A DNA stretch of 64,000 bases from Ignavibacteriaceae bacterium (GCA_023231105.1 JALNWB010000001.1:18276-82275), one strand, 5' to 3'. Positions 17,223-61,457 are shown, numbered from the stretch's first letter. The notes: a model not told the origin generated them from the letters alone. Translations and numbers: made by a program.

Positions 17223-17438
17223 ATGAAAGAAAATGGCAAATATTATCCTATAGAAAACGGATTAATCCCGTTAAAAGGTGGAAAGTGTTTTGAATATAAC
17301 TTACAAACCGAACTAACAAGAGAAAAATACCAACGTACTTTAGCAGCTACCATTATTTCGTCTTGCGAAATTATTTGCGAGAGAGACAATCCCATCCCTA
17401 CCCTTCCCCTTATCAAGGGGAAGGAGAATGAAAGTTGA
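17223..17438 (+). CDS. hypothetical protein whose C-terminus is encoded by a hairpin element
   Basis: GAAGGAAGGA precedes the ATG. The last roughly 15 codons (PIPTLPLIKGKENES) are read through the CCTTCCCCT/AGGGGAAGG hairpin, so the 3' end may be fortuitous. Confidence 0.35.
   Translation: MKENGKYYPIENGLIPLKGGKCFEYNLQTELTREKYQRTLAATIISSCEIICERDNPIPTLPLIKGKENES
17402..17424 (+). repeat. CCTTCCCCT-TATCA-AGGGGAAGG hairpin (family copy 1, inside ORF 17223-17438)
   Basis: A 9-bp perfect stem lies 18 nt upstream of late element copy A. Confidence 0.6.
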
Positions 17439-17476
17439 ATTTTCAACCCTTCGGAGAATAAATAAATAACTAAATC
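17436..17476 (+). promoter_or_regulatory. late regulatory element copy A (TTCAACCCTTCGGAGA-N12-CTAAAT)
   Basis: The core lies at 17442-17457 and CTAAAT at 17470-17475, 38 nt upstream of the portal ATG. Confidence 0.6.
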
Positions 17477-17513
17477 GGATTGTTAGTTTGTTAATATATA
17501 GGAACTCATCACA

Positions 17514-19313
17514 ATGAACATATTTTTAGACGAAAGCGCAAAAAATCCCAAAGATACCGAAGAACATGTACAAAGTACGGAGGAATTGTTAGACGGTATG
17601 ATGATGGATGAAGCGTTGCAAAAACGTTTGAACGAGCAAGGAAAATCGGGGGGAATAGTTTTACCGCTTGCGGAGGAGATGAATTCCGTATTACAAGAGA
17701 TTGAAGGTTTTAATTTTGAATATTCCGGACAGCAAAGGATCATCAATTGGGAGAACATGGATGTGCCGTACCGTGTATTAAGACGGGCAGGCAATACTGA
17801 AGCGGGAAGATTGGTGAAGAACCATCGGCGGCTTGGTTTGTCGCAATATGGAAGAGTCCCAAAGGCGGACGGGATACAAAGAGGCGGCAGGCTTATCTTT
17901 TGTGATCCAGATTATTCACCCACGAAAGATGAAAAGTTAAGGTTAAGAATTTGGGAAGATAAGATTTTTAAGAATTTCTTTTTCCCGGCAAACGATAGAT
18001 GGGCGAACTTTGCAAAGTTTATTGGGAACGCTTATGAGGATTGGTTTGATTATGATGACATAACTTGTGAGATTAGGCGTGACGGATTAGGCGACCCGAT
18101 AGCGATGCATTTGCAAGACCCGATTATTTATAAACCGGTTTTGAAGAAGAGCAGGGTTTATCCTAATTGGCGAGGCGAGGAAGACTATATGACACCTTAT
18201 CTTGAAGATTGGGAAACAATGGTAACAGGTAAACGGGCTTTTATTGGTGAGGATGAATTACCGGTAGAACCGGATTTTGTATTGCATTACAATAACATGC
18301 GATTAGGAGCAACAACGGATTATAACGTAAGAAAGTTCCACTTTTTTACCAGGAGCGATTTTAGGTTTACACAAAGAGGTTACGGGATAGTTGAACAATC
18401 TATTAACATTCTAACTTACATTATTAACGCGCTGAAGATGAACGCAAGTAATTTTATGAACAACAAATTACCCAAAGGATTCGTGCTATTCACCGGCGGC
18501 GGAATTGGAGCGCTTCAGCTAGAGAAATTGAAAAAGGTAATGAGCGCGTACATGGGCGGAACCGCGCCAAACCGTTTTCCGATAATGGGATTGAACAGCG
18601 AGAAAGGGGATGGGAAATGGGTAGGGATAGGCGGGAATAGTCGTGAGATGGAATATCATTTATGGATAACATTATTGTTTTCTATTTTTTGCCGGTTGAG
18701 TGGAACAGATCCGCGCGAAGTTAGTTTAGGCGCACACAGTGATGCAATTCGACCACAGAGTATAGGGGAAAAAAGCGCGGACGGAGTTGTAAACGAGAAT
18801 AGGGATATGGGTGAAAGAACTTTTCTTACGCATCTGAAAGATTCACTTAACGTTACGGATAAATACGGATTGAATTTATTTCAGCAGATCACTCAGATGA
18901 AAGTTGAGTTGGATTTTGCCGGGTTTGAAATTGAAGATAAGAAACTAAAGCAAGAAATAACAAAGTTGAATTTACAGACTTTCAAAAGCTTTAATGATGT
19001 TTTGGCAGAAGAGGACAAAGAGAAATACACGTTAATGATTGATGAGGAGACGAATCTTTTTGACATCCCCGGAGTAAATAGTGAAGTAATAAGATCTGCG
19101 GTTCAGTTTAAGATGCAATCTTTTTCAAATAAGCAAGCGGCAGAACAGCAGCAGCAGGCAGTTGGCAGTGATCAGTCGGCAGTAGGCAATGGTGAACAAG
19201 GACAGCCAGGAGGAGAGGAAGGGAGTGACGGATTAACTGAGGATGATAAGGCGCTAATTGAAAAATACAAAGGAGCTAGTAATGTTGAGATTGATAAGGA
19301 GTTGCAGCAATGA
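17514..19313 (+). CDS. portal protein (by size and position upstream of MuF-like gene)
   Basis: This 599-aa protein is the first gene after late element copy A. It is followed by a small ORF and then the MuF/SPP1-gp7-like gene, which is the usual portal-MuF arrangement. Its acidic Gln/Gly-rich C-terminal tail contains a CAGTCGG-type heptamer array. Confidence 0.7.
   Translation: MNIFLDESAKNPKDTEEHVQSTEELLDGMMMDEALQKRLNEQGKSGGIVLPLAEEMNSVLQEIEGFNFEYSGQQRIINWENMDVPYRVLRRAGNTEAGRLVKNHRRLGLSQYGRVPKADGIQRGGRLIFCDPDYSPTKDEKLRLRIWEDKIFKNFFFPANDRWANFAKFIGNAYEDWFDYDDITCEIRRDGLGDPIAMHLQDPIIYKPVLKKSRVYPNWRGEEDYMTPYLEDWETMVTGKRAFIGEDELPVEPDFVLHYNNMRLGATTDYNVRKFHFFTRSDFRFTQRGYGIVEQSINILTYIINALKMNASNFMNNKLPKGFVLFTGGGIGALQLEKLKKVMSAYMGGTAPNRFPIMGLNSEKGDGKWVGIGGNSREMEYHLWITLLFSIFCRLSGTDPREVSLGAHSDAIRPQSIGEKSADGVVNENRDMGERTFLTHLKDSLNVTDKYGLNLFQQITQMKVELDFAGFEIEDKKLKQEITKLNLQTFKSFNDVLAEEDKEKYTLMIDEETNLFDIPGVNSEVIRSAVQFKMQSFSNKQAAEQQQQAVGSDQSAVGNGEQGQPGGEEGSDGLTEDDKALIEKYKGASNVEIDKELQQ
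19152..19193 (+). repeat. tandem heptamer array, CAGTCGG type (6 units), inside the portal gene
   Basis: The units are CAGCAGG CAGTTGG CAGTGAT CAGTCGG CAGTAGG CAATGGT. They encode QQAVGSDQSAVGNG. Confidence 0.85.
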
Positions 19314-19597
19314 TAATTATTAAAATTTGGGGGCAGAAAGTTTTAGAAGTTGAAGGAATTGAAACAAAGGGAACGGTAAATAATTTTCATTATGCTAATT
19401 GCGTGTTTGGGCAGCCTATTGTTGCAACAATGAAGAGTGAGGGGGCAACGGCACAGCGAGAGGTTAAGAGAGAAACAATATCCGAAGAAAAATATCTTGA
19501 AATGGTTAAGAAAGTTTCGGATAAAACCGGTTTTAATGCAAGTGAAATAGAATGGATTTTACGTACAGCCGAAGGATATTTGGGAGGAGTTGAATAG
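19310..19597 (+). CDS. hypothetical protein
   Basis: It is coupled to the upstream gene by a 4-nt overlap. Confidence 0.5.
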   Translation: MIIIKIWGQKVLEVEGIETKGTVNNFHYANCVFGQPIVATMKSEGATAQREVKRETISEEKYLEMVKKVSDKTGFNASEIEWILRTAEGYLGGVE

Positions 19598-22057: not shown

Positions 22058-25000
22058 ATGTTTTTATATAAGTTACCGGATTATGAAGGGGGATTTGTTA
22101 CTAAATCTATTGAGTGCAATTGCATAGTAACAAGAGATGCAAACGGGCACTTGCTGGACAGTAAACCGGTTAATTGTGTAAAGAAGGGAGTGAAAACAAA
22201 TTTTGGAAAGGTTGTGGATTATTCGAAGAATTTTGTAATTCTGAAAAAAGGGACTGAGCTTAAAAGGGTGAAAAGGGAAGTTCTGAATAATATTTTGTTA
22301 AAGAGTTTGGAACAACCCGAGATAACTTTAGAAAAGATAAAGGTATCGGGAAAATTTAATACACTTGCGGGGAAAGTGTTGGTAAAAAGTGAAAGTGAAA
22401 TTGTTAGGGATGTATTAACTGATCCCGATAAAGTTTTGAGTAAGGGGAAAAGTGTTATTTTTTCTAAGACGATAAATGGGAAAGAGGTTGAGGCTAAGGT
22501 TGAGAAAACCTCAATGTTTATGAATACGTTTTTACATAAAAGTATAACCGTAAAGGAAAGTGTTGCGGCGAAAAGAATTTTAATAAAGGGAATTGCAACA
22601 ACGCTTAGAGCGCCGAAGGTGTTTAATATTCAGTCGGCAGTCGGCAGTAGGCAATCGACAATGGGTGGAACTGCATGGAACGCGAAAGGGGGAATGAAAC
22701 CGAATCATAAGTACATTGAACGGAAACCGGCGAAAAGTGGAGACGGGTATATTTATCTGTATGAACTCCCTTCCGGTAAAAAGGAATGGAGAGATGAAGC
22801 GGGAAAAGCTGTTGAGGGGGGACAGACGAGCGCCGATTATCAGTTGGAAGATTTTAAGGTGGGCGACATTGTTAGGCAGGATAATAAACTCGGCCGGATA
22901 ATGGAAGCATCAACAAATATGCTTGCGGTAAATTTCGGCGGGGAAATGAAGGTGATCAACAAAAAAGAGCATGTTGAAAAGGTTAAGCAGCATCAACTAA
23001 TGAAGGAAGGGGCCACGATGCAGTATGAGGGGAACGATGCAAAGATATTGAGGATAACCGGCAAAGCGGCATTGATAAACACGGCTGATAATAAGCTAAA
23101 GGTGATCAATCTTGAAAAGCAGTTGGAGAAATACGAACCGAAGAAAGAGGAGAAACGGTTAAATAAATACAGTGATGTTTACCAGGGTGAAGCGGAGCGA
23201 AGGATAGGGAGCGGGGGAGCGGATAATTACAACATCAGTTATGAAGAGCAGCCTAAGTATAAAAATTTTGTTGACGCGGCGAAGAAAACGGGATTTGGGA
23301 GAAAGAACGATCTTGAAATGGTGAAGCGCGTTGAAACGGAAAACGGGCTTAGAACGGTAAGGTGGAACTATAACCCGGAGGATCAGAATATTAGTTTTAT
23401 GGTTGACGGGAAAGAAGATTATACTATGAATTTTATGGGGAAGAAGTATAAAATAAGGGATATTACGGAAGACGGTTACAGTTTGGAAGATGCAGAAACT
23501 AAGGAACGGGGATTGTTCCTTTCTCACAAAGATTATAATAATGATTTGAAACAACAAAGAGACGAGGAGAGAAAGAATGTTGTAGTTGAAAGAACGGGAG
23601 GGGTGAACGGATTTGAAACGGTTAAAGAACCGGCGCGAACTTTTAGGTTTAAACCGGAATACAGTGATGAAGAAAAAGAAAGGTTTGAGAAACGAGGGGG
23701 AAGAAGACCGAGCCGATGGACGCGAAGAAAAGATGAACCTTTGCAAAGCGAAGAGGAGAAGAAACGATTAACTGAATTGCAGGACGAGAGGGATAAAAAG
23801 AATAAGGAAGTTTTGGGAACGAAGGATTTTGCAGACTTTGAGAAGTTACACAAAGAGAGAGGCTTTACAATTGGTGCAAATAGATTCCATGCAGCAAAAG
23901 AAATTGAGGCAGGCGGAAGAACATTCAGAATAAAGAGTGAGTTTAAGCCGGAGAAAATGAGCTGGCAGACTTCCATCGATGGACCTGTTAAGAAATTGCA
24001 GTTGGGAGAAAAACATTTACCGATAACGGATATTTCAAAAGATAAAGTTTTCTACCACGAAGGGGGGGATGAAAAAAGTATAACCTTTGATGAGTTGAAA
24101 ACGATTAACGGCAAGAGTTTGTTTGAACCCACAAAAGAGAGTAAAGGAATTGTAAGTAATTTAGATCCGGTGAAGATATATTTTGACGATAAAGATGTAA
24201 CGAGCGGGACTTATGAAATTGTTGAAGCTAATGAAATAATTGCTTCCCACAAAACGGATGGAACGCCAAACAGAGATTACACGATATCAGACGCGCAAAA
24301 TAGAGACCGCAGCACTCCGCAAAGTATTGCACAAATAAACAAGATCGCAGCGAATCCGAATTTTGACTTTTTAAGCGACAGTAAGACCGCGCAGGACGGC
24401 GCACCCATTGTTGATGAAGATTATAACGTAATTGCCGGGAACGGGCGGGGAATAGGCGTACAGCTTCATTACAGCAACAAAGGGGAGAAGTATCGAAATG
24501 ATCTGTTGAAAAAGGTTGAGAAGTACGGTTTTAGTCGAGACGATGTTGAGAAGATGAAACAGCCTATTTTGGTAAGGCGAACGAATGTTGACGCAAAAGA
24601 GGCGCAACGATTGGGAGCAATTAGCAATACCTCACAGATGCTTGCAACAGAGGAACGGGAAGCGGCAAAAGGAAAGGCAACAAGAATTGATGACGCTACA
24701 ATAAATAATTTAGCCGATATGTTCACAAAAGGGAACCATGAATCACTTAATCAATATTTGGATGAGATTGGACCGGATGTGGTAGGTGAGTTACTGAAGA
24801 AGAAAATTATCCCGGAGAATGAAGCGCACTTGTATATTGACCCGAAGAGCGGGAAAATGGATGCAGGGCACAAAGAAAAGGTTAAGCAAATATTAACGCA
24901 ATCGGTTTTGGGAGAGAGCAGTAAGCATTTTGAGAAGATACCGGAAGCGGCGAGAGCGGGAACGGTTAAAAGTCTTGGAGATATTTTTGCGCTGAAGGGG

Positions 25001-27154
25001 AAAGCGGGTGATCTTGTTCCTCACTTACAGGAAGCGATAAAGGTTTTAGCAAAGTATGAAGCGGTTAAGAATAACTTTAAATCGCCGGATGATTTTGTTA
25101 AGCAGGCGGCAAATGACGCATTTGAACCGTTGAAAGGAAGTAAAGAAGGATTGGCTTTATTTGATCTATTAGCAGACCCGATAAGAGAAGTAACGAAGGA
25201 AAACGGAAAGAAGGAAAAGAAAAACGTAATAAGTGATTTTATCCGTAAATATAAGTTAAGTTTAGAAGGGGATATGTTTGGCGAAGGCAAACCGGCGAAG
25301 GAAGCGTTTGATGAAGTGTTCAAGCCGAGGTACGAGAAGGGAGTGAATAAGAGTTTGTTTAGCAGATTGCGTATATTTGGTAAAAAAGTTTTTATGAAAT
25401 CTGTTGATACGACAAAGAATATTTTAGCGCCGAGTAAAAAGAATCCGGGTGTAAAACGTTGGCAAAAGGTTGAGAGCGGAAAGTTGAAAGTTGCAAGTGG
25501 AAAGGTTGAGGATAAAACACAAGTGACAAGTGACAAAAAGCAAGGGGAAGAAAAGATACGACTAAAAGATGTAACAAAATGGCATGAATACACAAAAGGA
25601 AGAATGATTGAAACAATTAGAAAAAATGCCGTAGAAGGATTAAATAAAGAAATAGATAAACATCAAGCAGAAATCAAATCATATGTATATGTTCCCGATC
25701 CTTATGATTTTCGTGATACAGAGAACCCAATAGAAATTAGTTTCTCGGGAAAAGAAAAAACAGGACAACCTATAATTATCAGGAATGGATTTGAATATAA
25801 ATTTGCATATCAGAGCAATAAATACGATAGATATGATAGATCACTCACAGATAAAGAGATGCAAGAAAAAACAGACAAGAAGAAAAAAGACATCCAATGG
25901 TTGATTGATTATAATAAAAAGAAAATTGACGATATTAATAATGGTTTGATAGATAATAAATTGTTTGACGAAGAGCAGAAAAGAATTGCAAAAGAAAAAG
26001 ACGACCGAGAAATTGAAATCGCAAATAAATTCTATCCAAGTAAAAGTCTTTCCCGATCTTTAAGGGATATAACAGGAAAGAAACTAGGTTTGTCTTTGCA
26101 CGACTTTCATGATGCAAAGGGTAATTCGGCGTATATAATAACTGATAAATTTAAAATACGATTTTCTGATCATGAGAGTAGAACTGAACAGGATTTCTAT
26201 AGATTGGATGAAAAGGATAAACCTTTTCGTCCAGTTGAATATGAACCAGAGGACATTGACATAATAATTTACAAAGACCGGAGAGGGGACGCTGTTGTTA
26301 CAATCGATGGGAATAACTATGGAATTGCGGATTATAATATTGATTCAATTGAAGATTTAAGCGAGTTCATACTTGAAAAGATAAATAAAAAAGTCGTTGA
26401 TTCCGTAGAACCAACGACTACAAATGAAAGCAAACCACAATCGCTTAAGACAGAGCCGAACGCTAAAAGCGGAGCGGATGACTTAGGCAGTGATAAACGT
26501 GCCGAAGCACAGACGAAAAGTAGTGAAGAGAAAGGAGAAAAGCAAATACCGCAAACGGAGACGGAGAATTTTAAGAAGTGGTTTGGGGAGAGTAAGGTAG
26601 TGGATAGTGAGGGGAAGCCGTTGGTGGTTTATCATGGCAGCAAAACACAGTTTGAGGTATTTGATAAAGTAAATGGCGAATCATCATCTTCCGGTAGATT
26701 TGAAGGGTTTCACTTTGGGACATTAGACCAAGCCAAAATGCGGAACGGTAAAATGGTTATGGCTCTGTTTCTAAAAGCTGAAAAATTACAACGGAGTAAA
26801 GATGAAGGAGGTAGGTGGTGGAAGAAAATTCAATCTGCAAAAAGTAGAAATTATGATGGCATAATTTATTTGAACAGATATGAAGGCATCCCTCTTGAAG
26901 AATATGATGAAGCAGAAAAACGAGGAGTTAAAACAGATGCCGATTCGCTTGATCGAATGAGTGATGAGCAATTTAGAAAAAATTTCCCATCAGCAAAAGA
27001 TAGCTATATCGTTTTTTCTCCAACTCAGATTAAATCCGCTATTGATAATGACGGAAGTTTTGATCCGGAGAATGCGGATATTACCAAGGGGACGAAAATA
27101 ACGAGGCGGATAATATTTAAGAAAAAGAAGAAGGATGAAACTTTTTTATTGTAG
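22058..27154 (+). CDS. polyvalent protein 1 (1698 aa): ParB/Srx-like domain plus C-terminal ART-PolyVal-like ADP-ribosyltransferase domain
   Basis: An HKYIERKPAKSGDGYIYLYE motif is present. A ParB-like block is present (YEIVEANEIIASH...QNRDR...INKIAANPNFDFL...GAPIVDEDYNVIAGNGRG). The C-terminus FKKWFGESKVVDSEGKPLVVYHGS...YIVFSPTQIKSAIDNDGSFDPENADI matches the ART-in-polyvalent-proteins signature as I recall it. Confidence 0.85.
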   Translation: MFLYKLPDYEGGFVTKSIECNCIVTRDANGHLLDSKPVNCVKKGVKTNFGKVVDYSKNFVILKKGTELKRVKREVLNNILLKSLEQPEITLEKIKVSGKFNTLAGKVLVKSESEIVRDVLTDPDKVLSKGKSVIFSKTINGKEVEAKVEKTSMFMNTFLHKSITVKESVAAKRILIKGIATTLRAPKVFNIQSAVGSRQSTMGGTAWNAKGGMKPNHKYIERKPAKSGDGYIYLYELPSGKKEWRDEAGKAVEGGQTSADYQLEDFKVGDIVRQDNKLGRIMEASTNMLAVNFGGEMKVINKKEHVEKVKQHQLMKEGATMQYEGNDAKILRITGKAALINTADNKLKVINLEKQLEKYEPKKEEKRLNKYSDVYQGEAERRIGSGGADNYNISYEEQPKYKNFVDAAKKTGFGRKNDLEMVKRVETENGLRTVRWNYNPEDQNISFMVDGKEDYTMNFMGKKYKIRDITEDGYSLEDAETKERGLFLSHKDYNNDLKQQRDEERKNVVVERTGGVNGFETVKEPARTFRFKPEYSDEEKERFEKRGGRRPSRWTRRKDEPLQSEEEKKRLTELQDERDKKNKEVLGTKDFADFEKLHKERGFTIGANRFHAAKEIEAGGRTFRIKSEFKPEKMSWQTSIDGPVKKLQLGEKHLPITDISKDKVFYHEGGDEKSITFDELKTINGKSLFEPTKESKGIVSNLDPVKIYFDDKDVTSGTYEIVEANEIIASHKTDGTPNRDYTISDAQNRDRSTPQSIAQINKIAANPNFDFLSDSKTAQDGAPIVDEDYNVIAGNGRGIGVQLHYSNKGEKYRNDLLKKVEKYGFSRDDVEKMKQPILVRRTNVDAKEAQRLGAISNTSQMLATEEREAAKGKATRIDDATINNLADMFTKGNHESLNQYLDEIGPDVVGELLKKKIIPENEAHLYIDPKSGKMDAGHKEKVKQILTQSVLGESSKHFEKIPEAARAGTVKSLGDIFALKGKAGDLVPHLQEAIKVLAKYEAVKNNFKSPDDFVKQAANDAFEPLKGSKEGLALFDLLADPIREVTKENGKKEKKNVISDFIRKYKLSLEGDMFGEGKPAKEAFDEVFKPRYEKGVNKSLFSRLRIFGKKVFMKSVDTTKNILAPSKKNPGVKRWQKVESGKLKVASGKVEDKTQVTSDKKQGEEKIRLKDVTKWHEYTKGRMIETIRKNAVEGLNKEIDKHQAEIKSYVYVPDPYDFRDTENPIEISFSGKEKTGQPIIIRNGFEYKFAYQSNKYDRYDRSLTDKEMQEKTDKKKKDIQWLIDYNKKKIDDINNGLIDNKLFDEEQKRIAKEKDDREIEIANKFYPSKSLSRSLRDITGKKLGLSLHDFHDAKGNSAYIITDKFKIRFSDHESRTEQDFYRLDEKDKPFRPVEYEPEDIDIIIYKDRRGDAVVTIDGNNYGIADYNIDSIEDLSEFILEKINKKVVDSVEPTTTNESKPQSLKTEPNAKSGADDLGSDKRAEAQTKSSEEKGEKQIPQTETENFKKWFGESKVVDSEGKPLVVYHGSKTQFEVFDKVNGESSSSGRFEGFHFGTLDQAKMRNGKMVMALFLKAEKLQRSKDEGGRWWKKIQSAKSRNYDGIIYLNRYEGIPLEEYDEAEKRGVKTDADSLDRMSDEQFRKNFPSAKDSYIVFSPTQIKSAIDNDGSFDPENADITKGTKITRRIIFKKKKKDETFLL
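22631..22665 (+). repeat. tandem heptamer array, CAGTCGG type (5 units), inside polyvalent protein 1
   Basis: The units are CAGTCGG CAGTCGG CAGTAGG CAATCGA CAATGGG. They encode QSAVGSRQSTMG. Confidence 0.9.
25470..25539 (+). repeat. tandem heptamer arrays, TTGAAAG type (6 units) then ACAAGTG type (3 units), inside polyvalent protein 1
   Basis: The first array is TTGAGAG CGGAAAG TTGAAAG TTGCAAG TGGAAAG GTTGAGG. The second, at 25519-25539, is ACAAGTG ACAAGTG ACAAAAA. Together they encode ESGKLKVASGKVEDKTQVTSDKK. Confidence 0.8.
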
Positions 27155-28436: not shown

Positions 28437-28556
28437 ATGAACGGCAGGATGAGAATAGGCGAAGCTAGGTTTAGTTACTGGACAAATAGAGAGAGAAAAG
28501 AAGTTGCCGGGAATGAAGATCAATTTAATTTATTCACCCAGACCGAGGCAGCGTAA
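28437..28556 (+). CDS. possible small ORF (39 aa) coupled to the DarB-like gene
   Basis: The ATG follows TAGGAATAGGA, and the stop overlaps the next start (TAATG). It carries no motif. Confidence 0.25.
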   Translation: MNGRMRIGEARFSYWTNRERKEVAGNEDQFNLFTQTEAA

Positions 28557-31500
28557 TGAAATTATTTGGAATGACAATAGCAAAGAGTAAAGATAAACCG
28601 AAATTGCTTAAAGCATTCGGGGTAATATTAAAAGCCTTCGGTACGCAGTTAGGAATGTTTAATGATGAAGTGATTGAAGGGCAGACGAAGCAGAAAGACG
28701 GGCACAGCTATGTAGTTAAGAGAAGTAACAAGAATCCTCTTGTAAAAAGATTATTCAGGGCGGATAAGGAGGAGAGTAAGCCGAAGGAACTGAGTTTGTT
28801 TGATAAGAAAGTTACAGTAGGCAGTCGGCAATCGGCAGTCGGCAATCGGGCAGAAAGTAAACCACCGAAAGCGGAACCAATAAGACACACAGAGCAACCG
28901 GAAGCAAAGGACGATCTCTTCAATCAACCAAAGGAAGAGAGAAAAGAGCCGAAGGCAGAAATTAAAGTTGTTAAGGGGAAGAAAAACCGTAAAGAGATTA
29001 ACGCTAAGGTTGAGGAGTTATTAAAGACAAAGAAAAATGATGAGATGAGCGCTGAGGATGTTGAATTATTAGCGCAGTACACCGGACGCGGCGGATTGTT
29101 AGGAGATACGCTTGAGGATATCTCGCTTAATGAATTTTACACACGTAAGGATGAAGCGGAATTTATTTGGGATATGATAGGGAAGTTAGGTTTTAAGGGA
29201 GGAAATGTTTTAGAGCCTTCGATGGGAACGGGAATTTTTGTTGAGACAGCACCGGAGAAAGCGCTTGTAACCGGAATTGAGATTGAGGAGACGAGTGGAA
29301 GAATCGGACAGATTTTACACGGCAATGAACACGATATCAGAATTCAGAGTTTTGAACAGTTTGTAAAAGACTATGATAATATGGGAGCGGATTTAGAAGG
29401 GGGAGAATATGACGCGATAGTTGGGAATTGTCCGTTTGGTAAAAGGGGATTGAGCGCAATGGATGATAGGGAAAAGAGCGATATAAAATTCCATGAGCAA
29501 TATTTTATTGATCGAGGTTTGGATATGTTGAAGCCGGGGGGGATAATGGCAATGATCGTTCCAACAAGTATAATGGATAACCAACTTAATCAATGGCGGG
29601 GAGAGGTAAACAAAAAAGGGGAATTTTTAGGAGCAATACGAGTACCAACCGGAGCATTCAAACACACAGACGCGCAAGTAACCACAGATATAGTTTTCTT
29701 TAAGAAAAGACCGCCGGAAGTAATTGATCACTTGAACAAACTTTCCAAGGAAGAACTTGGGGAAGCTTATGACGATATGGTAATGGATGCTGATTTTGTT
29801 TCGGGGAATTTCTTTAAGAATAATCCGGAGTATGCATTGGGCACGGAAACAAGCGGAATGTTCGGAATGAAGATTTGGAAGGGAGATATTACAAAGGCTG
29901 ATCTTGAAAAAGTCGGTGAGTTATTAAACCATGAGGCAAGAGATTACAGCAGTTTAGGAATTGATGTTAGTAAATATGGTGAGTTAGAAAAAGAACTTGA
30001 ACCGGGAGATGTAAAGATATTAAACGGAAGAACTTACATACTTAATAAAAACCATAGATGGGAAAGATTGAAAGATCAGGAAGTAGTATTACAAAACTTA
30101 CCGGAAGACATTAAAAAACTTGGTATTACGAGTTGGGATGAATGGAGAATTAAGAGTGAGGACACAGCTTATTTATACGGTTTGGATAAGGACCAACTTA
30201 AACTTTTCGGACAAACAAGAATAGTTAATGAGCTGGATGGATACAACGGCAAGAATGATTTTCAGACGGAATATTTAACAAAGGGAGTTGTGTTAGGTTT
30301 AGCAGTAAAGGATTTCAGAAAAGAGTTGCAAGACGGAAGATTATCCGCTGAAGAGGCGCAAATGGAAGCGGGGAAACTGAAGATATTGCTAAAGGATTTT
30401 ATTGAAAAGTATGGACACCCGATTGAGAATTTAAAGTTAAATAAATTTTTTAAGAACAGCGGAAACGCGCCACTTCTTAATTTGGCAGGTAGCTATGATA
30501 AGAACGGCAACACTATCAAGATGTTTGATGATCCGCTGTCTTTTTATAAAGTTTATCAAACGAAGAGCGAAATAGGAACAGTTGATAGGAATAATATTGT
30601 TTCGGTAATCGGTTTTCTTTTTGCAAATAATTTTCCAACGGATTATCAAACGGTACGAGGCGAGTATGAGGGGGATGGAGATATTGAAAGAGAGCTTGCA
30701 TATAGCGATGAAATTTATTTTGATGAAGAAGGAAATTATAAACCGAAAGAGGAAGTCCTTTACGGTTACATTTACGAAAAAATTGACGCTTGGGAAAAGC
30801 AACGAACCGAACTGAAGAAGGAATCCAAGAACGAAAAGTTAAGCGATAAAGAAAAAGAACTTAACGCGCAAAAAATGCGAAAGCTCGAAGATCAGATAAT
30901 TGAGGCGAAGACGAGAGCGAATATCAGGGAGATTAAGCAGCTACCAATAATGTTAAGCGATGCAGGGAGTATTTACGATATTGGTATTTTAAACAAATAT
31001 TTGGAAGAAAAGATAGGGGCGCATTTCTTAGGTGAATTACGCAAAGATGAAAAGAGTGGTTTCATTCTTCCGGTTGATGAGAGTTCGGCAAAATTATATT
31101 TAAGTTATGCAGATATTACGAAAGAGGGGAAATCAACAGATGTAAAACGGGAATTGCGGGATCTCTTTAATAAAGATGAGCATCCGTTGTTATTTATGAT
31201 TTTAAATAAGATGAATGGATTAGGTTTACCGGCATTACGGACAGAGGAAGGGATTGCTAAGAAAGAACAAGTCTTACAACTTGAAACAGATTTTAAGCAG
31301 TATTTATCCGATAGTGAAGAAGCTGATAAAATTGCAGATACTTATAACAGGTTGTTTAATTCTTACATACAAAAAACGTATGATGAAAAACCGATAGAGG
31401 GAATAAAGCATTTTGCTTATGATAGAGTAGTTGGAAAAGACGCAAGCGGAAAAGATATAACCGGAAAAGATAAGGCGGGCGGGCATACTTGGGCAACGGT

Positions 31501-35428: not shown

Positions 35429-35500
35429 CGGCGTAAAATTACGCCGGAATTAAAAGGAGCTTGTTCACGGGATACACAAATCTAAAATGTAGGAATAGAG

Positions 35501-35983
35501 ATGGAAGTGTGTGACGTAGACGAGGAAGTGTTAGAAAAGTTAATAAAAGAATTTACTGATGAATTTGGTGAAGAAGTGCTTAAGGAGGTTTACCGATTTC
35601 ACCGGAAATTAGCTAATAAAATGTATGTGAAGAATTTTCCGGCAGCGGAAATTTATCATAGACTTTTGATTAAAGATATCCGCAATGGTAAGTATGCAAA
35701 TATGAGTGTACGTGCAATTGCGGCGATTGAAAAGGTTAGTGAAGGTACGATCTATAACATTATCGGGAAAGCGTGTAGAGTTAAGAAACCGATTTATCAA
35801 TACTCGGTTAGGGGTAAATTAATAAAGAAATGGAACAGCGGAACGGAAATAGAAAAAGAATTGGGCTATAATGCAAGTCCAATACGGGCAAGCTGTAGAG
35901 AGGGGAACGATAGAGCGACTTATGGTTTTGTTTGGAGATACCAGGAGCTAACGGGAGAAGAACTTTTGGCAATTAGGAATTAG
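35501..35983 (+). CDS. DNA-binding protein: HTH plus NUMOD1-like module, no nuclease domain (candidate transcription regulator)
   Basis: MSVRAIAAIEKVSEGTIYNIIGKA is an HTH resembling sigma region 4 or resolvase. PIYQYSVRGKLIKKWNSGTEIEKELGYNASPIRASCREGNDRATYGFVWRY matches the NUMOD1-type DNA-binding module of homing endonucleases. Confidence 0.5.
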   Translation: MEVCDVDEEVLEKLIKEFTDEFGEEVLKEVYRFHRKLANKMYVKNFPAAEIYHRLLIKDIRNGKYANMSVRAIAAIEKVSEGTIYNIIGKACRVKKPIYQYSVRGKLIKKWNSGTEIEKELGYNASPIRASCREGNDRATYGFVWRYQELTGEELLAIRN

Positions 35984-36375: not shown

Positions 36376-36382
36376 TTTTTGG

Positions 36383-36420: not shown

Positions 36421-36440
36421 AAAGCGACCTCATCCCATTT

Positions 36441-36463: not shown

Positions 36464-36507
36464 TTGGATATTATTTAACACATAAAAGAACCAACCTATT
36501 AACAATC

Positions 36508-47649: not shown

Positions 47650-47679
47650 TTGACTTTAATATACAAACGTTTGTATATT
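47650..47679 (+). promoter_or_regulatory. sigma70-type promoter (TTGACT-N18-TATATT) overlapped by a perfect 22-bp palindrome (operator)
   Basis: TTGACT lies at 47650-47655 and TATATT at 47674-47679. The palindrome AATATACAAACGTTTGTATATT lies at 47658-47679. Confidence 0.6.
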
Positions 47680-47712
47680 TGTAGTGAAAGAAAAACAAAA
47701 AAGGAACCTCAA

Positions 47713-48228
47713 ATGAAAAGCGAAAACAAACCTAAATTTAACCCAACACCGGAAATGATAACTGCAACAAAAGCTGTTCTTGCGGCGAAAGCATTAGTGC
47801 TAACTATTCGCCCGATAGTTGAAGGTTATGAAAAAGAAATCTTGGCAAAACATCGATTTACAAACAAAGCAGAAGTAGCAATGCTTACAGAGCATGGACA
47901 TGAAGCAAAGGAAAGAGTGATCTTAGATCCGAAAGAGAGCTACCAAATGGGTGATGAAGACTTTAACGCTTATTGGAACGAGTGCAAAGCGGAAAGAGAA
48001 AGAAACGGATTAAAGGTTGAGCGTGATGATTTTTGTCCTTTGTTAGTAGCTGAAAATTTAGAGCGACAAGCAAATAGGGTTCTTTTAGAAGCGATGCAAC
48101 CCATAACCGGTATTGACCCGGACGATCTTTGGAACATGGACCACCGAAAACAACTAATTGATTTGAGTATTAAATTAATTGCAGCTTATTGTAGAGAAAA
48201 TAATATTGATCTAGAGGGAGGGTTCTAA
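47713..48228 (+). CDS. hypothetical protein, first gene of autonomous cassette
   Basis: The ATG follows AAAAAGGAAC, downstream of the TTGACT-N18-TATATT promoter. The TTG at 47650 in the ORF track coincides with the promoter -35 element and I reject it as a start. Confidence 0.5.
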   Translation: MKSENKPKFNPTPEMITATKAVLAAKALVLTIRPIVEGYEKEILAKHRFTNKAEVAMLTEHGHEAKERVILDPKESYQMGDEDFNAYWNECKAERERNGLKVERDDFCPLLVAENLERQANRVLLEAMQPITGIDPDDLWNMDHRKQLIDLSIKLIAAYCRENNIDLEGGF

Positions 48229-48229
48229 A

Positions 48230-48706
48230 ATGAAAACCGAAGCCGCATTAGTTTCAAAAAGAATAAAGAAAGAATTGAAAGAACTTTTTCCCAAGATAAA
48301 GTTTTCCGTAACCAGCAGTAACTATTCCGGCGGGAATTCTGTTCGTATTGAATATAATGATTTTTTACCGACAAGTGTTTTGGAAGATCATTTTGAGAAA
48401 TATGAAGATGGGAAATTTGATAGTTCCCAAGATTTGTATGAGTACAAAAAAAACGCACATGAAGTAAATCCTAACGGTATTTTAGAAGCCCTCCCAAGAA
48501 CAAAATATTTGTTTTTCGAGCGGAGAGTTTCGCCGGAAATGAGAGAAGAAGCGAAAAAATATATTTTGAATACTTTTGATTGTGTCGAGAAACACGAAAC
48601 GCAAATACACACAGCAGTACATCGGTTAACCGTAAATATGGATTTAAGTTTTGGTTTTGACAAAAAGTATGCAGAAAATTTTCCTCACGGGTTATTTGAT
48701 TATTAG
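48230..48706 (+). CDS. hypothetical protein resembling a polyvalent-protein-associated (LPD-type) domain
   Basis: KRIKKELKELFPKIKFSVTSSNYSGGNSVRIEYNDFLPTSVLEDHFEKYEDGKFDSSQDLYEYKK resembles a domain I recall from conjugative-element and phage polyvalent proteins (..FP.VKFSV.S..ysGG.Si.v.w.dgP....v......Y..G.FDgm.D.Y.Y). The exact family name is uncertain. Confidence 0.45.
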   Translation: MKTEAALVSKRIKKELKELFPKIKFSVTSSNYSGGNSVRIEYNDFLPTSVLEDHFEKYEDGKFDSSQDLYEYKKNAHEVNPNGILEALPRTKYLFFERRVSPEMREEAKKYILNTFDCVEKHETQIHTAVHRLTVNMDLSFGFDKKYAENFPHGLFDY

Positions 48707-48736
48707 TTATTTTTCACTAAAGAAAAGGACAAAATA

Positions 48737-48928
48737 ATGATTTGCACTGAATGTAAGAAAGAAGCAAAAACAACTTATGCAGGATATTGGCATAATGATG
48801 GTAGCAAAGATGGCGTATGGGTGATCAAAGAAGGCGAGCATCTATGCGAAGATTGCGCGGAGAAAAGAACAGGGTTTAAAACACTTAGAGAGATTAATAA
48901 TTCAAGAAAACTGAAAAAATTAAAATGA
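48737..48928 (+). CDS. small zinc-ribbon protein
   Basis: The sequence reads MICTECKKEAK...HLCEDCAEK. Confidence 0.45.
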   Translation: MICTECKKEAKTTYAGYWHNDGSKDGVWVIKEGEHLCEDCAEKRTGFKTLREINNSRKLKKLK

Positions 48929-49167
48929 CAACCATACACGAAAAAATAGCAAAAACAATTCCGGCGGAGTTTGTGCATAAAGACTTTGAGGTATTGGAAC
49001 TAATTCACCAGCGGGGGAAATTACCGGCGGGGAAGTGGTATTCAATTCAAGAGTACATGAAGAAAGCCAATCTTAAAACACGGCGCAGTGTGTACCAAAG
49101 AATTGAAAGCGGGGAACTTGAGACAACGAAGATAGATAAATTCACTTTTGTAAAAGAGACCAAGTAA
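48925..49167 (+). CDS. small HTH (excisionase/MerR-like HTH_17-type) DNA-binding protein
   Basis: WYSIQEYMKKANLKTRRSVYQRIESGELETTKIDKFTFV follows the Xis/HTH_17 pattern. It is a candidate ligand for the 22-bp palindromic operator at 47658-47679. Confidence 0.5.
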   Translation: MTTIHEKIAKTIPAEFVHKDFEVLELIHQRGKLPAGKWYSIQEYMKKANLKTRRSVYQRIESGELETTKIDKFTFVKETK

Positions 49168-49200
49168 AAACGACCTCACTTTAATTCGACCTCACCCCTA

Positions 49201-49229
49201 CCCCTCTCCTTTGTAAGGAGAGGGGTTTT
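49201..49229 (+). terminator. intrinsic terminator; CCCCTCTCCTT-TGT-AAGGAGAGGGG hairpin (family copy 3)
   Basis: An 11-bp perfect stem is followed by TTTT. It closes the cassette at 47.6-49.2 kb. Confidence 0.75.
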
Positions 49230-49244
49230 CCACTTTAAACAATC

Positions 49245-49286
49245 TTCAAATTTCAACCCTTCGGAGAGAAACGCATTCCTTAAATA
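49245..49286 (+). promoter_or_regulatory. late regulatory element copy C
   Basis: The core lies at 49252-49267 and TTAAAT at 49280-49285, upstream of the gene at 49331. Confidence 0.6.
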
Positions 49287-49330
49287 ACGGCTGTATTTAA
49301 CAAAGTATTATCTCTTAGTATAACATCAAC

Positions 49331-53520: not shown

Positions 53521-53589
53521 TTAATTATTCACCATATCCTCCCGCCTTTTGTGTAAAAGCAAGGGGTGGGAGTAATTTTAGAGGCAAAA

Positions 53590-54051
53590 ATGGACAGCAG
53601 CATTAGAGAAAAGATTTCGTTTACGATAGATGAAAAGACCTTTGAATTCTTTGCAGAAGCAACAGCAATAGAAAGCAGACAAATACGCAACGAGATGGCG
53701 GAACTTCTTGGAGGTATCGAGAATTTATTAAGTCTGGAAAATTTGATAAGTCGAGAGTATAGTGCATACTATGACAAACTTGATAAGTTACCCGGGAGCA
53801 AAGAAGCGGAAGAAAAGAAGGATGAAGTTTTTGACGCAATGATAAAAGATCAGAAATTTTATTTAAAGCTCTTATCGGTAATCAATGAAAAGAAAAACTT
53901 ACAGCAGCTTGCCTTCTTAAAGGTAATGTGCATTAAGCCTTATGGATATGATTTCTATTCGCAGAAGGAAGAGTACCTAAGAAAAATTGTTGTAGAGTTA
54001 GACAAGAAATTAGATGAAGTAAAAAAAAAGTTACCAGGCTTAGAGGCTTAA
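53590..54051 (+). CDS. tail assembly chaperone (gpG-like, frame 0 product)
   Basis: It lies downstream of the tube gene and ends 20 nt after an A9G slippery run. I prefer the ATG at 53590 after GAGGCAAAA over the GTG at 53566. Confidence 0.6.
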   Translation: MDSSIREKISFTIDEKTFEFFAEATAIESRQIRNEMAELLGGIENLLSLENLISREYSAYYDKLDKLPGSKEAEEKKDEVFDAMIKDQKFYLKLLSVINEKKNLQQLAFLKVMCIKPYGYDFYSQKEEYLRKIVVELDKKLDEVKKKLPGLEA

Positions 54052-54362
54052 TAAATCTTGACGGAAATGAGTGTTTACTCTCTGATGATTTCGCAAAGGA
54101 AATAGAAGATCGTTCTACTTTCAGGCAATTCTGGAAAGACCACTATGGATACAGCAGTAACGATGAACGGTATCTAACAGCTACTGATTCTCAGATATTA
54201 AGCGACTACCTTGATCTTAAAATAAAGGGCTTTAAAGAAAAATATCCGGACGCATTTATCTTAAAGACGGCGAAGAATAGAGCCTTGGATCCACGGTATG
54301 ATGAAAAAACAAATTTGGCATTCAAGGAAGCTTTAAAAAATATTGAGATAGTGCATATATAA
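53590..54362 (+). CDS. tail assembly chaperone, -1 frameshift product (gpGT-like)
   Basis: The -1 frame is open for 110 codons from 54030 to TAA at 54360-54362. It has no usable internal start until near its end. Entry would occur via A AAA AAA AAG at 54021-54030. Confidence 0.55.
54021..54030 (+). other. -1 programmed ribosomal frameshift slippery site (A9G)
   Basis: The run AAAAAAAAAG lies 20 nt before the frame-0 stop of the chaperone gene, and the -1 frame is open for 110 further codons. Confidence 0.6.
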
Positions 54363-54445
54363 AAGTTAATACAAGACTTGTTTTATAAAATAACATTTTA
54401 TAAGTTTGTATTGTCATTTAAAACAATTATTCAAAGGAAAAACAA

Positions 54446-54901
54446 ATGGACAAGGAAATTAACCACGAAAGCAAAGATCAAGGACTCGAGGATTTCCTAA
54501 AATTCAGAGCAGATCTTTTTAACCAACGATTAAAATCTTTAGGTATAAACGCCAAGATAAGCGTAAACACCGACGAAGAAAAGATGACATTTCTTAATTG
54601 CTTAAGAGAAATTACGGATGAAGATCCTCTCAAAGAACAAAAAACCGATTTAGAAAAATTTGTTGAGTTATATTTATCCTTTGGGGTACAGTGCATTGTT
54701 AAAGAGGGGATAGACGAGAAATCAAAACAAGAAGTTAAAACAATCCGGTTCCAAAACACAAACGGATTGAATGAATATGGACTTGACAATCTACCAGAAG
54801 GTTTAACCACCTCAGAAAAGTTTGACGGATACGGTGATTCATTTACGCTGATAACCTTTTCTAAAGACGGGGAATTTTTATGCCAAGGATTTTGGGGATA
54901 A
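54446..54901 (+). CDS. hypothetical protein (cassette between chaperone and tape measure)
   Basis: AAAGGAAAAACAA precedes the ATG. An AT-rich region with inverted repeats lies upstream. Confidence 0.5.
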   Translation: MDKEINHESKDQGLEDFLKFRADLFNQRLKSLGINAKISVNTDEEKMTFLNCLREITDEDPLKEQKTDLEKFVELYLSFGVQCIVKEGIDEKSKQEVKTIRFQNTNGLNEYGLDNLPEGLTTSEKFDGYGDSFTLITFSKDGEFLCQGFWG

Positions 54902-54929
54902 ACCATAACAGGCTTAAAGGAGCAGAGAA

Positions 54930-55127
54930 ATGAGCAAAAGAATCATCAGTTTTATTAGAATATTCTTCACTTTAATGTTGATTGATGCTGTTTATCTTGA
55001 GGCGGGGATATTCACAGCTATATCAATATCTTTAATTGCGATTGCATTAGAGATACAAGCAGAATTAAATAAGCATTATTTGAAAGAGGGAGATGACAAG
55101 CCACGGGCGGTGAAAAATGATATTTAA
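54930..55127 (+). CDS. small membrane protein (2 TM)
   Basis: AAAGGAG precedes the ATG. The predicted helices are IISFIRIFFTLMLIDAVYL and IFTAISISLIAIALEI. Confidence 0.5.
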   Translation: MSKRIISFIRIFFTLMLIDAVYLEAGIFTAISISLIAIALEIQAELNKHYLKEGDDKPRAVKNDI

Positions 55128-55350
55128 ACCGAAAGATATTCTGACAAAAAAGATAAAATTAAAAGACTCCTTAAAAGAGAATTATGAAGATAACTTTGAG
55201 GAAGATGAATGCAAGAAAATGTTAAGTGGAAAATGTAAAATACTAGAAATAAACGAAAATGGTGAATTTGCCATTGGCTATAGAGGTAAACTATTATTGG
55301 CATGGTTAGACTTAGAAGACTTTGAATTTGTAGTTGCAAATTCCATTTAA
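55117..55350 (+). CDS. hypothetical protein
   Basis: It overlaps the upstream gene by 11 nt and is followed by a strong terminator. Confidence 0.45.
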   Translation: MIFKPKDILTKKIKLKDSLKENYEDNFEEDECKKMLSGKCKILEINENGEFAIGYRGKLLLAWLDLEDFEFVVANSI

Positions 55351-55380
55351 TCACCAACTAACCCGCAATTAAATAAAAAT

Positions 55381-55420
55381 AAACCTCCGAAGTTTTTAAA
55401 ATTTCGGAGGTTTTTCATTT
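55381..55420 (+). terminator. intrinsic terminator
   Basis: The stem AAACCTCCGAA/TTCGGAGGTTT is followed by TTTTTCATTTT. Confidence 0.8.
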
Positions 55421-55431: not shown

Positions 55432-55473
55432 CTCAAATTTCAACCCTTCGGAGAATAAGTAAATGATTAAATA
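55432..55473 (+). promoter_or_regulatory. late regulatory element copy D
   Basis: The core lies at 55439-55454 and TTAAAT at 55467-55472, upstream of the tape measure gene. Confidence 0.6.
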
Positions 55474-55521
55474 AGCGTCGTATTTAACCAAGTATTTACT
55501 CAGTATCATCTCTATAAATCT

Positions 55522-58590: not shown

Positions 58591-58592
58591 AC

Positions 58593-60242: not shown

Positions 60243-61159
60243 AAAAGAAAAATGAAAATATTGTAGCAAAAGAGAAAGTATTTTTTCTCGGTAAATTAAT
60301 TTTTGACCGGAAGCAGATGAATACTTTTTTCCGTGATCAAAACGGAGTGCTGCATGATTTACTGAAGATTAGTTTTTCTTCCAAAGAATTTAACAGCGAA
60401 GACGGCGATTTGATTTTACCGAAGCCGGAGATCATAGATGGGAACGGCGCTATTGAAGAATCGGGTGATATGTTGCTTTACAGTTATATAAACGGGAACC
60501 CCGATGATATTGTAATAATATCTTCCATTTATAACATAAAACTTTCGCATGTAGATAAACAGTTGAGGATGGGAACGGATGATATTGACGCGATAAGAAA
60601 GCGAATTGGGGTAAGAAATAACAAGAAACGCTATTTGGTGATAAATGATGACGGTGCCGGTAATTATTATTTTTATCTGAAGGGAAAGGACAAAAACGGG
60701 AATGTAGCGGTAAAAATAACCGGTGACGGCGAAGGGAACGGAAATTTTAAGTTTGAGTTGAACGGAAAATGTTTGCTTAAACAGGTTGACGACAAAGGGG
60801 AATTGATAAGTAAAATATTTATGGATAACACCAAGGACGCAGAAAAAACCATATTTGAGGATAAGCACCAAAACGTAATTACCATGAGCAAGGATGGAGT
60901 GACTATTACCGATCAGAATAAGAATTTGGTGGAACTGAACAAAAAAGGAATGATCGTTAAAGGGGAATGTATTGATGTAAAAGGGAGAGATTCAACGGGC
61001 ACATTAACTCTTAAAAAAATATTAACTGATTTAGTGCAAGCAATACTAGCAATGACACAACCAACAAACACCGGCGCTACCGTAGGTCCACCGGTTAATA
61101 TGGCTGACTTTTTAAAAGTAAAACAAGACGCGGAAAAATTGTTAAAGGAGAATAGTTGA
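60239..61159 (+). CDS. baseplate central spike-like protein (by position)
   Basis: It is coupled to the upstream gene by a 4-nt overlap. It is beta-rich with a conserved-looking C-terminal helix. The call is weak. Confidence 0.3.
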   Translation: MKKKNENIVAKEKVFFLGKLIFDRKQMNTFFRDQNGVLHDLLKISFSSKEFNSEDGDLILPKPEIIDGNGAIEESGDMLLYSYINGNPDDIVIISSIYNIKLSHVDKQLRMGTDDIDAIRKRIGVRNNKKRYLVINDDGAGNYYFYLKGKDKNGNVAVKITGDGEGNGNFKFELNGKCLLKQVDDKGELISKIFMDNTKDAEKTIFEDKHQNVITMSKDGVTITDQNKNLVELNKKGMIVKGECIDVKGRDSTGTLTLKKILTDLVQAILAMTQPTNTGATVGPPVNMADFLKVKQDAEKLLKENS

Positions 61160-61160
61160 A

Positions 61161-61412
61161 ATGGCATTAGCGACAATGGCACTACAAACAGCATTAGAGG
61201 CAGCATTAACTGCGAACATCCCTTCAGCCGAAGGTACTGAAAAAGCAAAAGCCATGGCAAAAGCTTTGGCAACGGCAATGGCTACCGCAATGGAAACGTT
61301 TGTAAGAAGCGGCACGGTGGCATTTGCCCCGGGGACAGTGACCGGGATAGCAACTCCGGTAACCGGAGGACCAATAACGGCGGGAGCTGCAACCGGCGGG
61401 GCGATTACGTGA
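61161..61412 (+). CDS. small Ala/Thr/Gly-rich protein
   Basis: The sequence reads MALATMALQTALEAALTAN...GTVTGIATPVTGGPITAGAATGGAIT. Compositional bias also creates two minus-strand shadow ORFs here. Confidence 0.4.
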   Translation: MALATMALQTALEAALTANIPSAEGTEKAKAMAKALATAMATAMETFVRSGTVAFAPGTVTGIATPVTGGPITAGAATGGAIT

Positions 61413-61415
61413 AAA

Positions 61416-61457
61416 TTCAAATTTCAACCCTTCGGAGAGAGAGAGAATACTTAAATA
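61416..61457 (+). promoter_or_regulatory. late regulatory element copy E
   Basis: The core lies at 61423-61438 and TTAAAT at 61451-61456, upstream of the gene at 61501. Confidence 0.6.

Follow-up and report, generated by a model that had tools for sequence, protein, structure and literature searches.

The window analysed here is the whole 64,000-nucleotide (nt) stretch of DNA from an Ignavibacteriaceae bacterium assembly (GCA_023231105.1, JALNWB010000001.1:18276-82275). It carries phage structural genes, and a short two-block element is repeated five times among them. Positions are counted from the first letter of the window, and all of the window's genes are on the + strand. The first block of the element contains the 22-mer TCAAATTTCAACCCTTCGGAGA, which occurs exactly at 36509, 49246, 55433 and 61417, always on the + strand, and had no matches in 100 shuffles. 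A copy with two mismatches (TGAATTTTCAACCCTTCGGAGA) begins at 17436 on the same strand. The second block follows at a fixed distance, and the complete pattern, TCAAATTTCAACCCTTCGGAGA-N12-YTAAAT, occurs at the same five places with 0 expected by chance, which bears out the five copies and fixed spacing described in the initial annotation. The core coordinates used there, such as 17442, fall 6 nt into the 22-mer, and an alignment of the copies shows that the conserved part begins ~8-10 nt upstream of it. All five copies are intergenic and lie on the coding strand; intergenic DNA makes up 5.7% of the window.

The element has a three-part layout. The 10-mer TTTCAACCCT, with an upstream half-site TTCAAAT, is followed by a 20-nt spacer and then by the hexamer TAAAT(A/C). 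The hexamer region of the copies reads CTTAAATA, ATTAAATA or ACTAAATC. In the window's clade the block has an additional upstream piece, TCGGAGA. The 12 nt between the 22-mer and YTAAAT are common to copies 2 and 3 (GAAACGCATTCC or AAATCGCATTCC). A further block, GTATTTAACAAAGTATT, begins 7 nt after TAAAT in copies 3-5; it is found nowhere else in the window and is not in copies 1 and 2. A generalised form of the pattern matches the five copies and one site within a gene, with 1.4 matches expected in the window.

Copy 1 (17436-17475, +; TGAATTTTCAACCCTTCGGAGA-N12-CTAAAT) lies upstream of the portal gene and begins with the 3-nt stop codon of the open reading frame (ORF) at 17223-17438. Copy 2 (36509-36548, +) is upstream of the protease/scaffold gene, which starts with TTG, and of the major capsid gene (38020). 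Copy 3 (49246-49309, +), with GTATTTAACAAAGTATT at 49293-49309, is followed by a gene for a 296-amino-acid (aa) protein and by the putative sheath and tube genes. Copy 4 (55433-55496, +; downstream block 55480-55496) stands before a 1022-aa putative tape-measure gene. Copy 5 (61417-61480, +; downstream block 61464-61480) stands before tube-initiator-like and sheath-initiator-like baseplate genes, the first of which starts with ATG. From the end of TAAAT to the start codons at 17514 (ATG), 36575, 49331, 55522 and 61501, the distances are 38, 26, 45, 49 and 44 nt, respectively; the last becomes 38 nt if a TTG at 61495 is used. A distance of 38-74 nt to the first gene, as given earlier, is only roughly right, the range being 26-49 nt when measured in this way.

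The initial annotation had named all of these blocks by function and had placed a copy in front of every structural operon. The labels hold for the portal (17514, a PHROG match), the head maturation protease (36575) and the major head protein (38020). The products of 61501 and 62259 have weak tube-initiator and sheath-initiator matches. The neck, sheath and tape-measure labels follow position and size only, and searches of PDB sequences with these three putative proteins gave no match. "Every structural operon" is too strong, because the large terminase gene (9605-11629) and the blocks starting at 39540, 47650 and 54446 have no copy in front of them, and the other sizeable intergenic regions contain hairpins or different promoter-like sequences without the element. 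There are no more copies in the 7.4 kb before the window (early genes) or in the ~9 kb after it, which hold baseplate and diversity-generating retroelement (DGR) genes.

Hairpins and inserted cassettes

Hairpins of −17 to −21.5 kcal/mol (z −2.9 to −5.8) lie no more than 50 nt upstream of copies 1-4, as had been noted for four of the copies. Copy 5 has no hairpin upstream. The hairpin before copy 1 (17402-17424, +; −17.2 kcal/mol) has no U-tract and lies inside the end of the ORF at 17223-17438. Copy 2 is preceded by two hairpins (36381-36467, +), an intrinsic terminator at 36381-36412 (−20.2 kcal/mol, with a U-tract) and a second hairpin at 36435-36467 (−19.9 kcal/mol). Terminator hairpins also precede copy 3 (49200-49226, +; −21.5 kcal/mol, UUUU) and copy 4 (55381-55413, +; −18.7 kcal/mol, with a U-tract). 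In close relatives the upstream hairpins are entirely different in sequence, and the element is kept from a sharp 5′ edge on.

The terminator before copy 4 closes an inserted, moron-like cassette (54378-55413, +). It consists of a promoter of the type used in the Fibrobacterota-Chlorobiota-Bacteroidota (FCB) group, TTG-N20-TAAGTTTG (54378-54408), three small genes (54446-55350) and the terminator. Copy 4 comes immediately after this unit. Two close relatives, L188 and L189, have the putative tape-measure gene directly after the chaperone frame, with no cassette, no terminator and no copy 4. Copy 4 is thus present only with a terminator-ended cassette, as expected if the element restarts late transcription past a terminator. 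A second block of small genes (47650-49167) is headed by an FCB-type promoter candidate (47650-47681, +; TTG-N21-TATATTTG) and ends at the terminator before copy 3. Its gene content differs among close relatives, and the corresponding block of L189 has no detectable homologue of the window genes in the cassette at 47650-49230. Both cassettes (54378-55413 and 47650-49230) have the same moron-like make-up of a host-type promoter, small genes and a terminator.

In T4-type phages, repeated promoter/stem-loop sequences flank small variable gene cassettes, the promoter early stem-loop (PeSL) cassettes, and morons are comparable units. Copy 4 is likewise tied to an inserted promoter-genes-terminator unit. 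The repeats could therefore be mainly recombination anchors for PeSL-like cassette (moron) exchange, with promoter activity secondary or absent. Copies 3 and 4 do directly flank variable small-gene cassettes, the one at 47650-49167 variable and the one at 54378-55413 absent in L188 and L189, and the 12-nt spacer common to copies 2 and 3 suggests copying or gene conversion. Copies 1, 2 and 5, however, are not beside variable cassettes, and orientation and distance to the start codon are fixed. Anchors would also not require the 20-nt spacing and the hexamer to persist in relatives whose blocks have fully diverged, as they do. Unlike in PeSL cassettes, the repeated promoter here would serve conserved structural genes past the cassette, and the cassette genes have a host-type promoter. 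We regard a mainly recombinational function as improbable. The anchor and promoter roles are not mutually exclusive, and the elements may also serve in cassette exchange.

Promoter-like geometry in the window and its relatives

A DNA search of INPHARED (50,697 phage records) with the capsid region gave no match, and a search for relatives with a 549-aa protein (58593) gave none. Five close relatives are present in IMG/VR. Capsid homologues that are 42-59% identical occur on contigs assigned to metagenome-assembled genomes (MAGs) of Ignavibacteriales, Melioribacteraceae and Bacteroidetes, and some of these contigs are 189-539 kb or larger. Such large MAG contigs suggest that the more distant relatives are prophages. 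A few MAG titles name unrelated phyla, and these are probably binning errors. The phage is uncultivated, and its host is probably an FCB-group bacterium belonging to the Ignavibacteriota or Bacteroidota.

The primary-sigma box of Flavobacterium, TAnnTTTG, lies at −12 to −5 (PMC9723704), and the Chlorobaculum consensus is TTG-N17-23-TA[ATC][ATC][AT]T (bioRxiv 10.1101/172254). When the element is aligned with the host box so that the T of TAAATA is set at −12, the predicted transcription start (+1) falls at 49293, 55480 and 61464, each the first base of the GTATTTAAC block, and at ~17483 and ~36556 in copies 1 and 2. The 10-mer then lies at −42 to −33 and the whole block at about −52 to −26. The 20-nt spacer falls within the N17-23 of FCB promoters, and TAAATA and TAAATC match five of the six positions of the Chlorobaculum −7 form. 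The elements and FCB primary-sigma promoters have in common the spacer length, an A/T-rich hexamer starting with TA, and a predicted +1 at the edge of a conserved block. Host promoters have TTG at −33 and TTG in the −7 box, whereas the phage elements have neither. Their −33 position holds CCCT, ACCT, ACCA or ACAA as part of the phage block, with no TTG in any copy. By contrast, the sequences at 54378-54408 and 47650-47681 fit the host TTG/−7 consensus. To judge from this geometry, the elements look like host-type promoters in which a phage-specific site has taken the place of the −33 element.

Two readings change accordingly. The AT-rich block fits the −7 box of an FCB primary-sigma promoter better than it does a −10 box, with the phage block replacing the −33 TTG. 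The "clear sigma70 promoter" at 47650 scores no better than chance in a sigma70 scan, as does the window overall, and instead fits the FCB-type pattern given above. Two further arrangements were tried and dropped. An extracytoplasmic function (ECF)-type promoter with AAC at −35 and CGT at −10 would place its putative −35 in the non-conserved spacer, and a second, overlapping promoter with TATTTA at +2 would have a −33 region that is not conserved.

The sequence of the element does not extend to distant relatives. When up to three mismatches were allowed, the window motif was matched only twice in 33 loci from more distant relatives, both times apparently by chance, and the element sequence itself is therefore clade-specific. 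A scan of viral contigs with the 14-mer TTTCAACCCTTCGG was uninformative, giving more than 118 loci, nearly all of them single matches on unrelated contigs. What the relatives with 42-59% identical capsids do have is a block of their own at two corresponding junctions, one ahead of the protease gene and the other ahead of the homologue of the gene at 49331. This block is repeated within each genome and differs among lineages. Its 10-mer is TTTCACACCT in L169, ATTCACACCT in L179, TTTCACACCA in L141, L178 and L139, AATCAAACCT in L175, L180 and L134, AATGAGCACT in L171, ACGGTAACA in L130, GACGACACAA in L174 and AACGACACAA in L181. With spacers of 18-22 nt permitted, a script placed the 10-mer and a TAwwTw hexamer exactly 20 nt apart at 16/16 matched sites. 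The remaining lineages keep the 20-nt spacing with the hexamers TAAAAT, TAAGTT, TAGTTT and TATTTT; TATTTA and TAATTA are found at orthologous places elsewhere, and the range runs from TAAAAT, which agrees with the host −7 form, to TAGGTT. Upstream of the 10-mer is a second, partly common half-site, which reads TTTGCAAAAA or GTGAAAAA in relatives and TTCAAAT in the window; TTTGCAAAAA is A/T-rich and occurs in many lineages. The block has no inverted repeat and resembles tandem half-sites (TTCAAAT/TTCAACC, TTTCACA/TTTCACA). The downstream block, (C/T)GTATTT...GTATT, is kept before the 49331 homologue in L169, L175, L180/L134 and L141.

Since hexamer and spacing resemble host primary-sigma geometry, the copies might be ordinary constitutive promoters of host polymerase that need no phage factor. 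The block would then be an UP-like or host-specific enhancer, and the A/T-rich half-site (TTTGCAAAAA in many lineages) does resemble an UP element. Against this, the −33 TTG is missing from all copies, and the block is lineage-specific, is repeated only within its own genome, and is found neither in the early region nor at the other promoter candidates. We think there is very little chance that the elements are plain host promoters.

The initial annotation had likened the AT-rich block to the late promoter box of phage T4. TATAAATA includes the TAAATA of copies 2-5, and in both phages the signal precedes structural genes. T4 late promoters, which consist of TATAAATA and depend on gp55/gp33/gp45, have no upstream element. 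The elements described here, unlike those of T4, have a conserved block exactly 20 nt upstream in all lineages. The likeness is superficial, as relatives use TATTTA, TAATTA, TAAGTT and TAGTTT, the upstream block is present, and no gp55-like match was found among the ~60 ORFs scanned.

The elements could also act at the level of RNA or elongation, as a conserved 5′ leader, a processing site, or a lambda-Q-like loading site. At such a site a factor would join polymerase that has paused at a −10-like sequence early in the transcript and render it resistant to terminators. In copies 3-5 a second −7-like hexamer, TATTTA, lies at predicted +2 to +7. It is an inverted repeat of TAAATA and is kept before the 49331 homologue in distant lineages. 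Possible roles for it are a leader, a sigma-dependent pause or an operator. Copies 3 and 4 have a 7-bp inverted repeat, TTAAATA-N6-TATTTAA, at 49281-49300 and 55468-55487 (predicted −13 to +8), which is imperfect (TATTAAA) in copy 5 (61452-61471) and absent from copies 1-2. Some read-through must occur in any case, since very stable hairpins inside operons, after the capsid gene (39474-39520, −25 kcal/mol) and after the tube-like gene (53535-53582, −23.5 kcal/mol), have no element after them; for this reason their probable role is to set protein ratios, as attenuators or by stabilising mRNA. The element shows no stable or covarying RNA structure. The five element regions fold no better than shuffles (z −0.3 to +0.8), the alignment fold contains only the A/T inverted repeat TTAAATA/TATTTAA with one compensatory change, and Rfam and tRNA scans found nothing. 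Copies 1 and 2 lack the downstream block. The −10-like TATTTA in 3/5 copies recalls lambdoid Q systems, but five promoters, four of them after hairpins, are the opposite of a single antitermination-competent late promoter, and there was no Q-like match in the scanned ORFs. An RNA or elongation function is very unlikely to be the main one.

The candidate regulator and neighbouring genes

Pfam, PHROG and NCBIfam scans covered ~60 of the ~75 ORFs of the window, and returned no sigma, Mor, gp55 or Q-like protein. The initial annotation had proposed two candidate factors, a Mor-like ORF at 14778 and an HTH/NUMOD1-like ORF at 35501. The first (14778-15008, +) encodes 76 aa with a helix-turn-helix (HTH)-like pattern by eye, and searches of Pfam, PHROG, NCBIfam and PDB returned no family or profile match; the loci of relatives that we compared do not extend over this region. 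The second (35501-35983, +) has comparative support. It encodes a 160-aa protein with weak HTH and NUMOD1 matches, made up of an N-terminal five-helix domain of ~95 aa and a further C-terminal part. The domain model (predicted local distance difference test score 86) has five helices, the last two of which form the C-terminal HTH of the domain. The C-terminal ~60 aa (window 35786-35983) are weakly NUMOD1-like and occur in the window clade only; other homologues stop after the HTH. The likeness to Mor of either product was by eye only, with no match to Mor (structure 1RR7) in Pfam, PHROG, NCBIfam or PDB and none in Foldseek searches with the models, and ORF 35501 is not a detectable relative of Mor.

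The ORF 35501 family is narrow, found only in phages and ~100 aa long, with 26 clusters (50% identity) among 1.84 billion proteins, or 24 in a word-based search. Genes for homologues of the first ~100 residues occur in 16 lineages, either immediately ahead of the head promoter or at a distance of a few kb. Across these 16 lineages, which are not independent and in which the regulator gene adjoins the site used, the distance between sites (20-nt) and the distance between regulators are correlated (r 0.63). The partial Mantel r is 0.46 when capsid distance is controlled for and 0.41 when protease distance is controlled for (p 2e−4 in both), and 0.51 (p 8e−4) with 12 representatives. Site and capsid distance, controlling for regulator, give −0.03. 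The ORF 35501 family is, on these comparisons, the best candidate for the factor, although we hold its identification as the factor to be possible rather than probable.

The gene has a possible FCB-type promoter of its own (35461-35488, +; TTG-N19-TAAAAT), 12 nt before the ATG, and such a host-type promoter would let the regulator be made before the late operons. In L141, L169, L175, L178, L179 and L180, an (A/G)GGAG(C/T)T motif lies ~45-50 nt before the regulator ATG and is followed by a hairpin whose 3′ arm abuts the start codon. Together they may represent a promoter −33 region combined with control of regulator translation.

An alternative sigma factor, whether from the phage or of host ECF-type or other origin, could instead read both the block and the TAAAT box, with ORF 35501 in another role. 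The two-block architecture with its invariant spacing is a classical sigma signature. The top resemblances of the ORF 35501 product, weak and non-significant, are to sigma region 4 and ECF sigma, and the scan took in ~60 of the ~75 ORFs of the window and only part of the genome outside it. Set against this, the ~60 scanned proteins have no match to sigma-70 region 2 or 4, ECF or gp55, and a ~100-aa family is too small for a region-2-like domain. The conserved block, at ~20-27 bp, is longer than a −35 element, and the hexamers vary around the host −7 consensus and do not form a distinct −10. We judge such a sigma factor unlikely, though the least unlikely of the alternatives considered.

The structural region has several other features. 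TTG is the start codon of the protease/scaffold gene in the window (36575) and also in L166, L169, L171, L175 and L180, and the predicted leader of this gene is only ~19 nt. The head-gene operons contain three giant polyvalent proteins (22058-27154, 28556-34672 and 42357-46385), with ParB-like and ADP-ribosyltransferase, Eco57I-like methylase and SNF2 helicase, and zeta-toxin/AAA domains. The tail assembly chaperone (53566-54362) is probably made by a −1 programmed frameshift. The ORF at 53566-54051 stops just past a T AAA AAA AAA G run (54020-54030), and the −1 frame is open to 54362, which explains an apparently non-coding gap of 394 nt, the largest in the window. The extended chaperone frame of L188 and L189 reaches the start of the putative tape-measure gene. 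A DGR, comprising the accessory protein bAvd and a reverse transcriptase, lies among baseplate/fibre genes in L162 (12939-14611), at a position about 2-4 kb past the right end of the window. The coding strand is purine-rich throughout the window (GC skew ~+0.25, AT skew ~+0.2).

Proposed late promoters of a phage with a probable FCB host

We consider it likely that the five elements are factor-dependent late promoters of a phage with an FCB host, the factor being an activator or a sigma factor, because relatives keep the same architecture and spacing, each lineage has a block of its own, and copy 4 goes with a terminator-ended cassette. The dedicated late-promoter class with a phage factor proposed in the initial annotation is thus the best-supported reading, and several of its details (the T4 box, sigma70, the Mor likeness, every operon) do not stand. 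The phage block would sit in place of the host −33 TTG, and host RNA polymerase alone would use the element poorly because it is a promoter without the host −33 element. A phage-encoded DNA-binding factor would recognise the block and recruit or redirect the polymerase, so that the portal, head, tail, tape-measure and baseplate operons are switched on together. The terminator hairpins would insulate each operon from upstream transcription, the last operon excepted. The most likely factor would be the small HTH protein of 35501-35983, made from its apparent own host-type promoter.

Several observations weigh against this reading. TAAAT(A/C) has neither the TTG of the Bacteroidota −7 box nor the final T of the Chlorobaculum form, and the FCB host is assigned solely on MAG titles and on sequences that resemble promoters. 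The scan, which took in ~60 of the ~75 ORFs, may have overlooked a phage sigma factor. As for the regulator, three to four relatives (L129, L131/L173 and L137) have no homologue of it in the DNA covered, and L174 and L181 have nearly the same 10-mer with dissimilar recognition helices. Foldseek searches with full-length and domain models found nothing significant (best E 0.6; the top non-significant domain matches were to sigma region 4 and GntR-type domains), a PDB profile search with the family gave at best a TetR-type HTH (E 0.013), and comparison of ORF 35501 with known activators, sigma factors and Mor gave no significant match. The Mantel signal may arise because the regulator gene is physically linked to the site and evolves faster. 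The regulator gene also lies at the 3′ end of the copy 1-driven operon, so an independent early promoter must be assumed.

By mode of action, the closest analogues of the proposed factor-dependent promoters appear to be the Mor/C-dependent promoters of phage Mu and the MotA-dependent promoters of T4, while the candidate proteins fall outside those protein families. Mor and C of Mu are small (~100-140 aa) activators with a C-terminal HTH that switch on morphogenetic operons. Their promoters (Pm, Plys, PI, PP and Pmom) have a recognisable −10, no usable −35 and a ~20-bp activator site at about −30 to −55. The elements here similarly have a ~20-bp site over a poor −35 region, with the block at about −52 to −26 of a predicted +1. 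They differ in that the Mu sites are dyads and the phage block looks like a tandem or direct repeat (TTCAAAT-TTCAACC, TTTCACA-A-TTTCACA), and in that the Mu promoters are of the sigma70 −35/−10 type and the host promoter type here is FCB −33/−7. No sequence or structural relation of ORF 35501 or ORF 14778 to Mor or C was detected.

T4 middle promoters keep the host downstream box and replace the upstream element with a 9-bp MotA box at −30, which a phage protein reads, in a process of sigma appropriation by AsiA. A phage-specific box at a fixed distance in place of the upstream host element is common to both systems. The block here is longer and further upstream (−52 to −26 versus a 9-bp box at −30), it would control late structural genes, and homologues of MotA and AsiA were not seen here. 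On a more tentative reading, which we put forward with considerable doubt, the ~100-aa family would be a previously undescribed re-targeting subunit of the FCB primary-sigma polymerase, pictured as three N-terminal helices plus a sigma-region-4-like HTH. It would make the polymerase recognise, in place of the −33 TTG, a ~20-bp site that coevolves with it in each phage lineage, with the GTATTTAAC block adding a pause or leader function at the tail operons. If true, this would be a sigma-appropriation-like switch with a specificity code that could be read from ~15 protein-site pairs.

Late promoters controlled by a phage factor are a well-known kind of phage control, and what makes this case of interest is the little-studied host group and the available set of regulator-site pairs that have already diverged. 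The finding would be an ordinary one if the elements prove to be plain promoters. Control of transcription in phages of the Bacteroidota and Ignavibacteriota is almost unexplored, and their hosts use an atypical −33/−7 promoter and an atypical primary sigma factor. The elements mark operon boundaries and moron insertions, which allows better annotation of this phage group. Together with its relatives, the locus offers a defined late-promoter architecture with a predicted +1, a candidate regulator family and naturally diverged regulator-site pairs. These pairs would lend themselves to tests of specificity swapping and could give orthogonal inducible promoters for genetic work in these bacteria.

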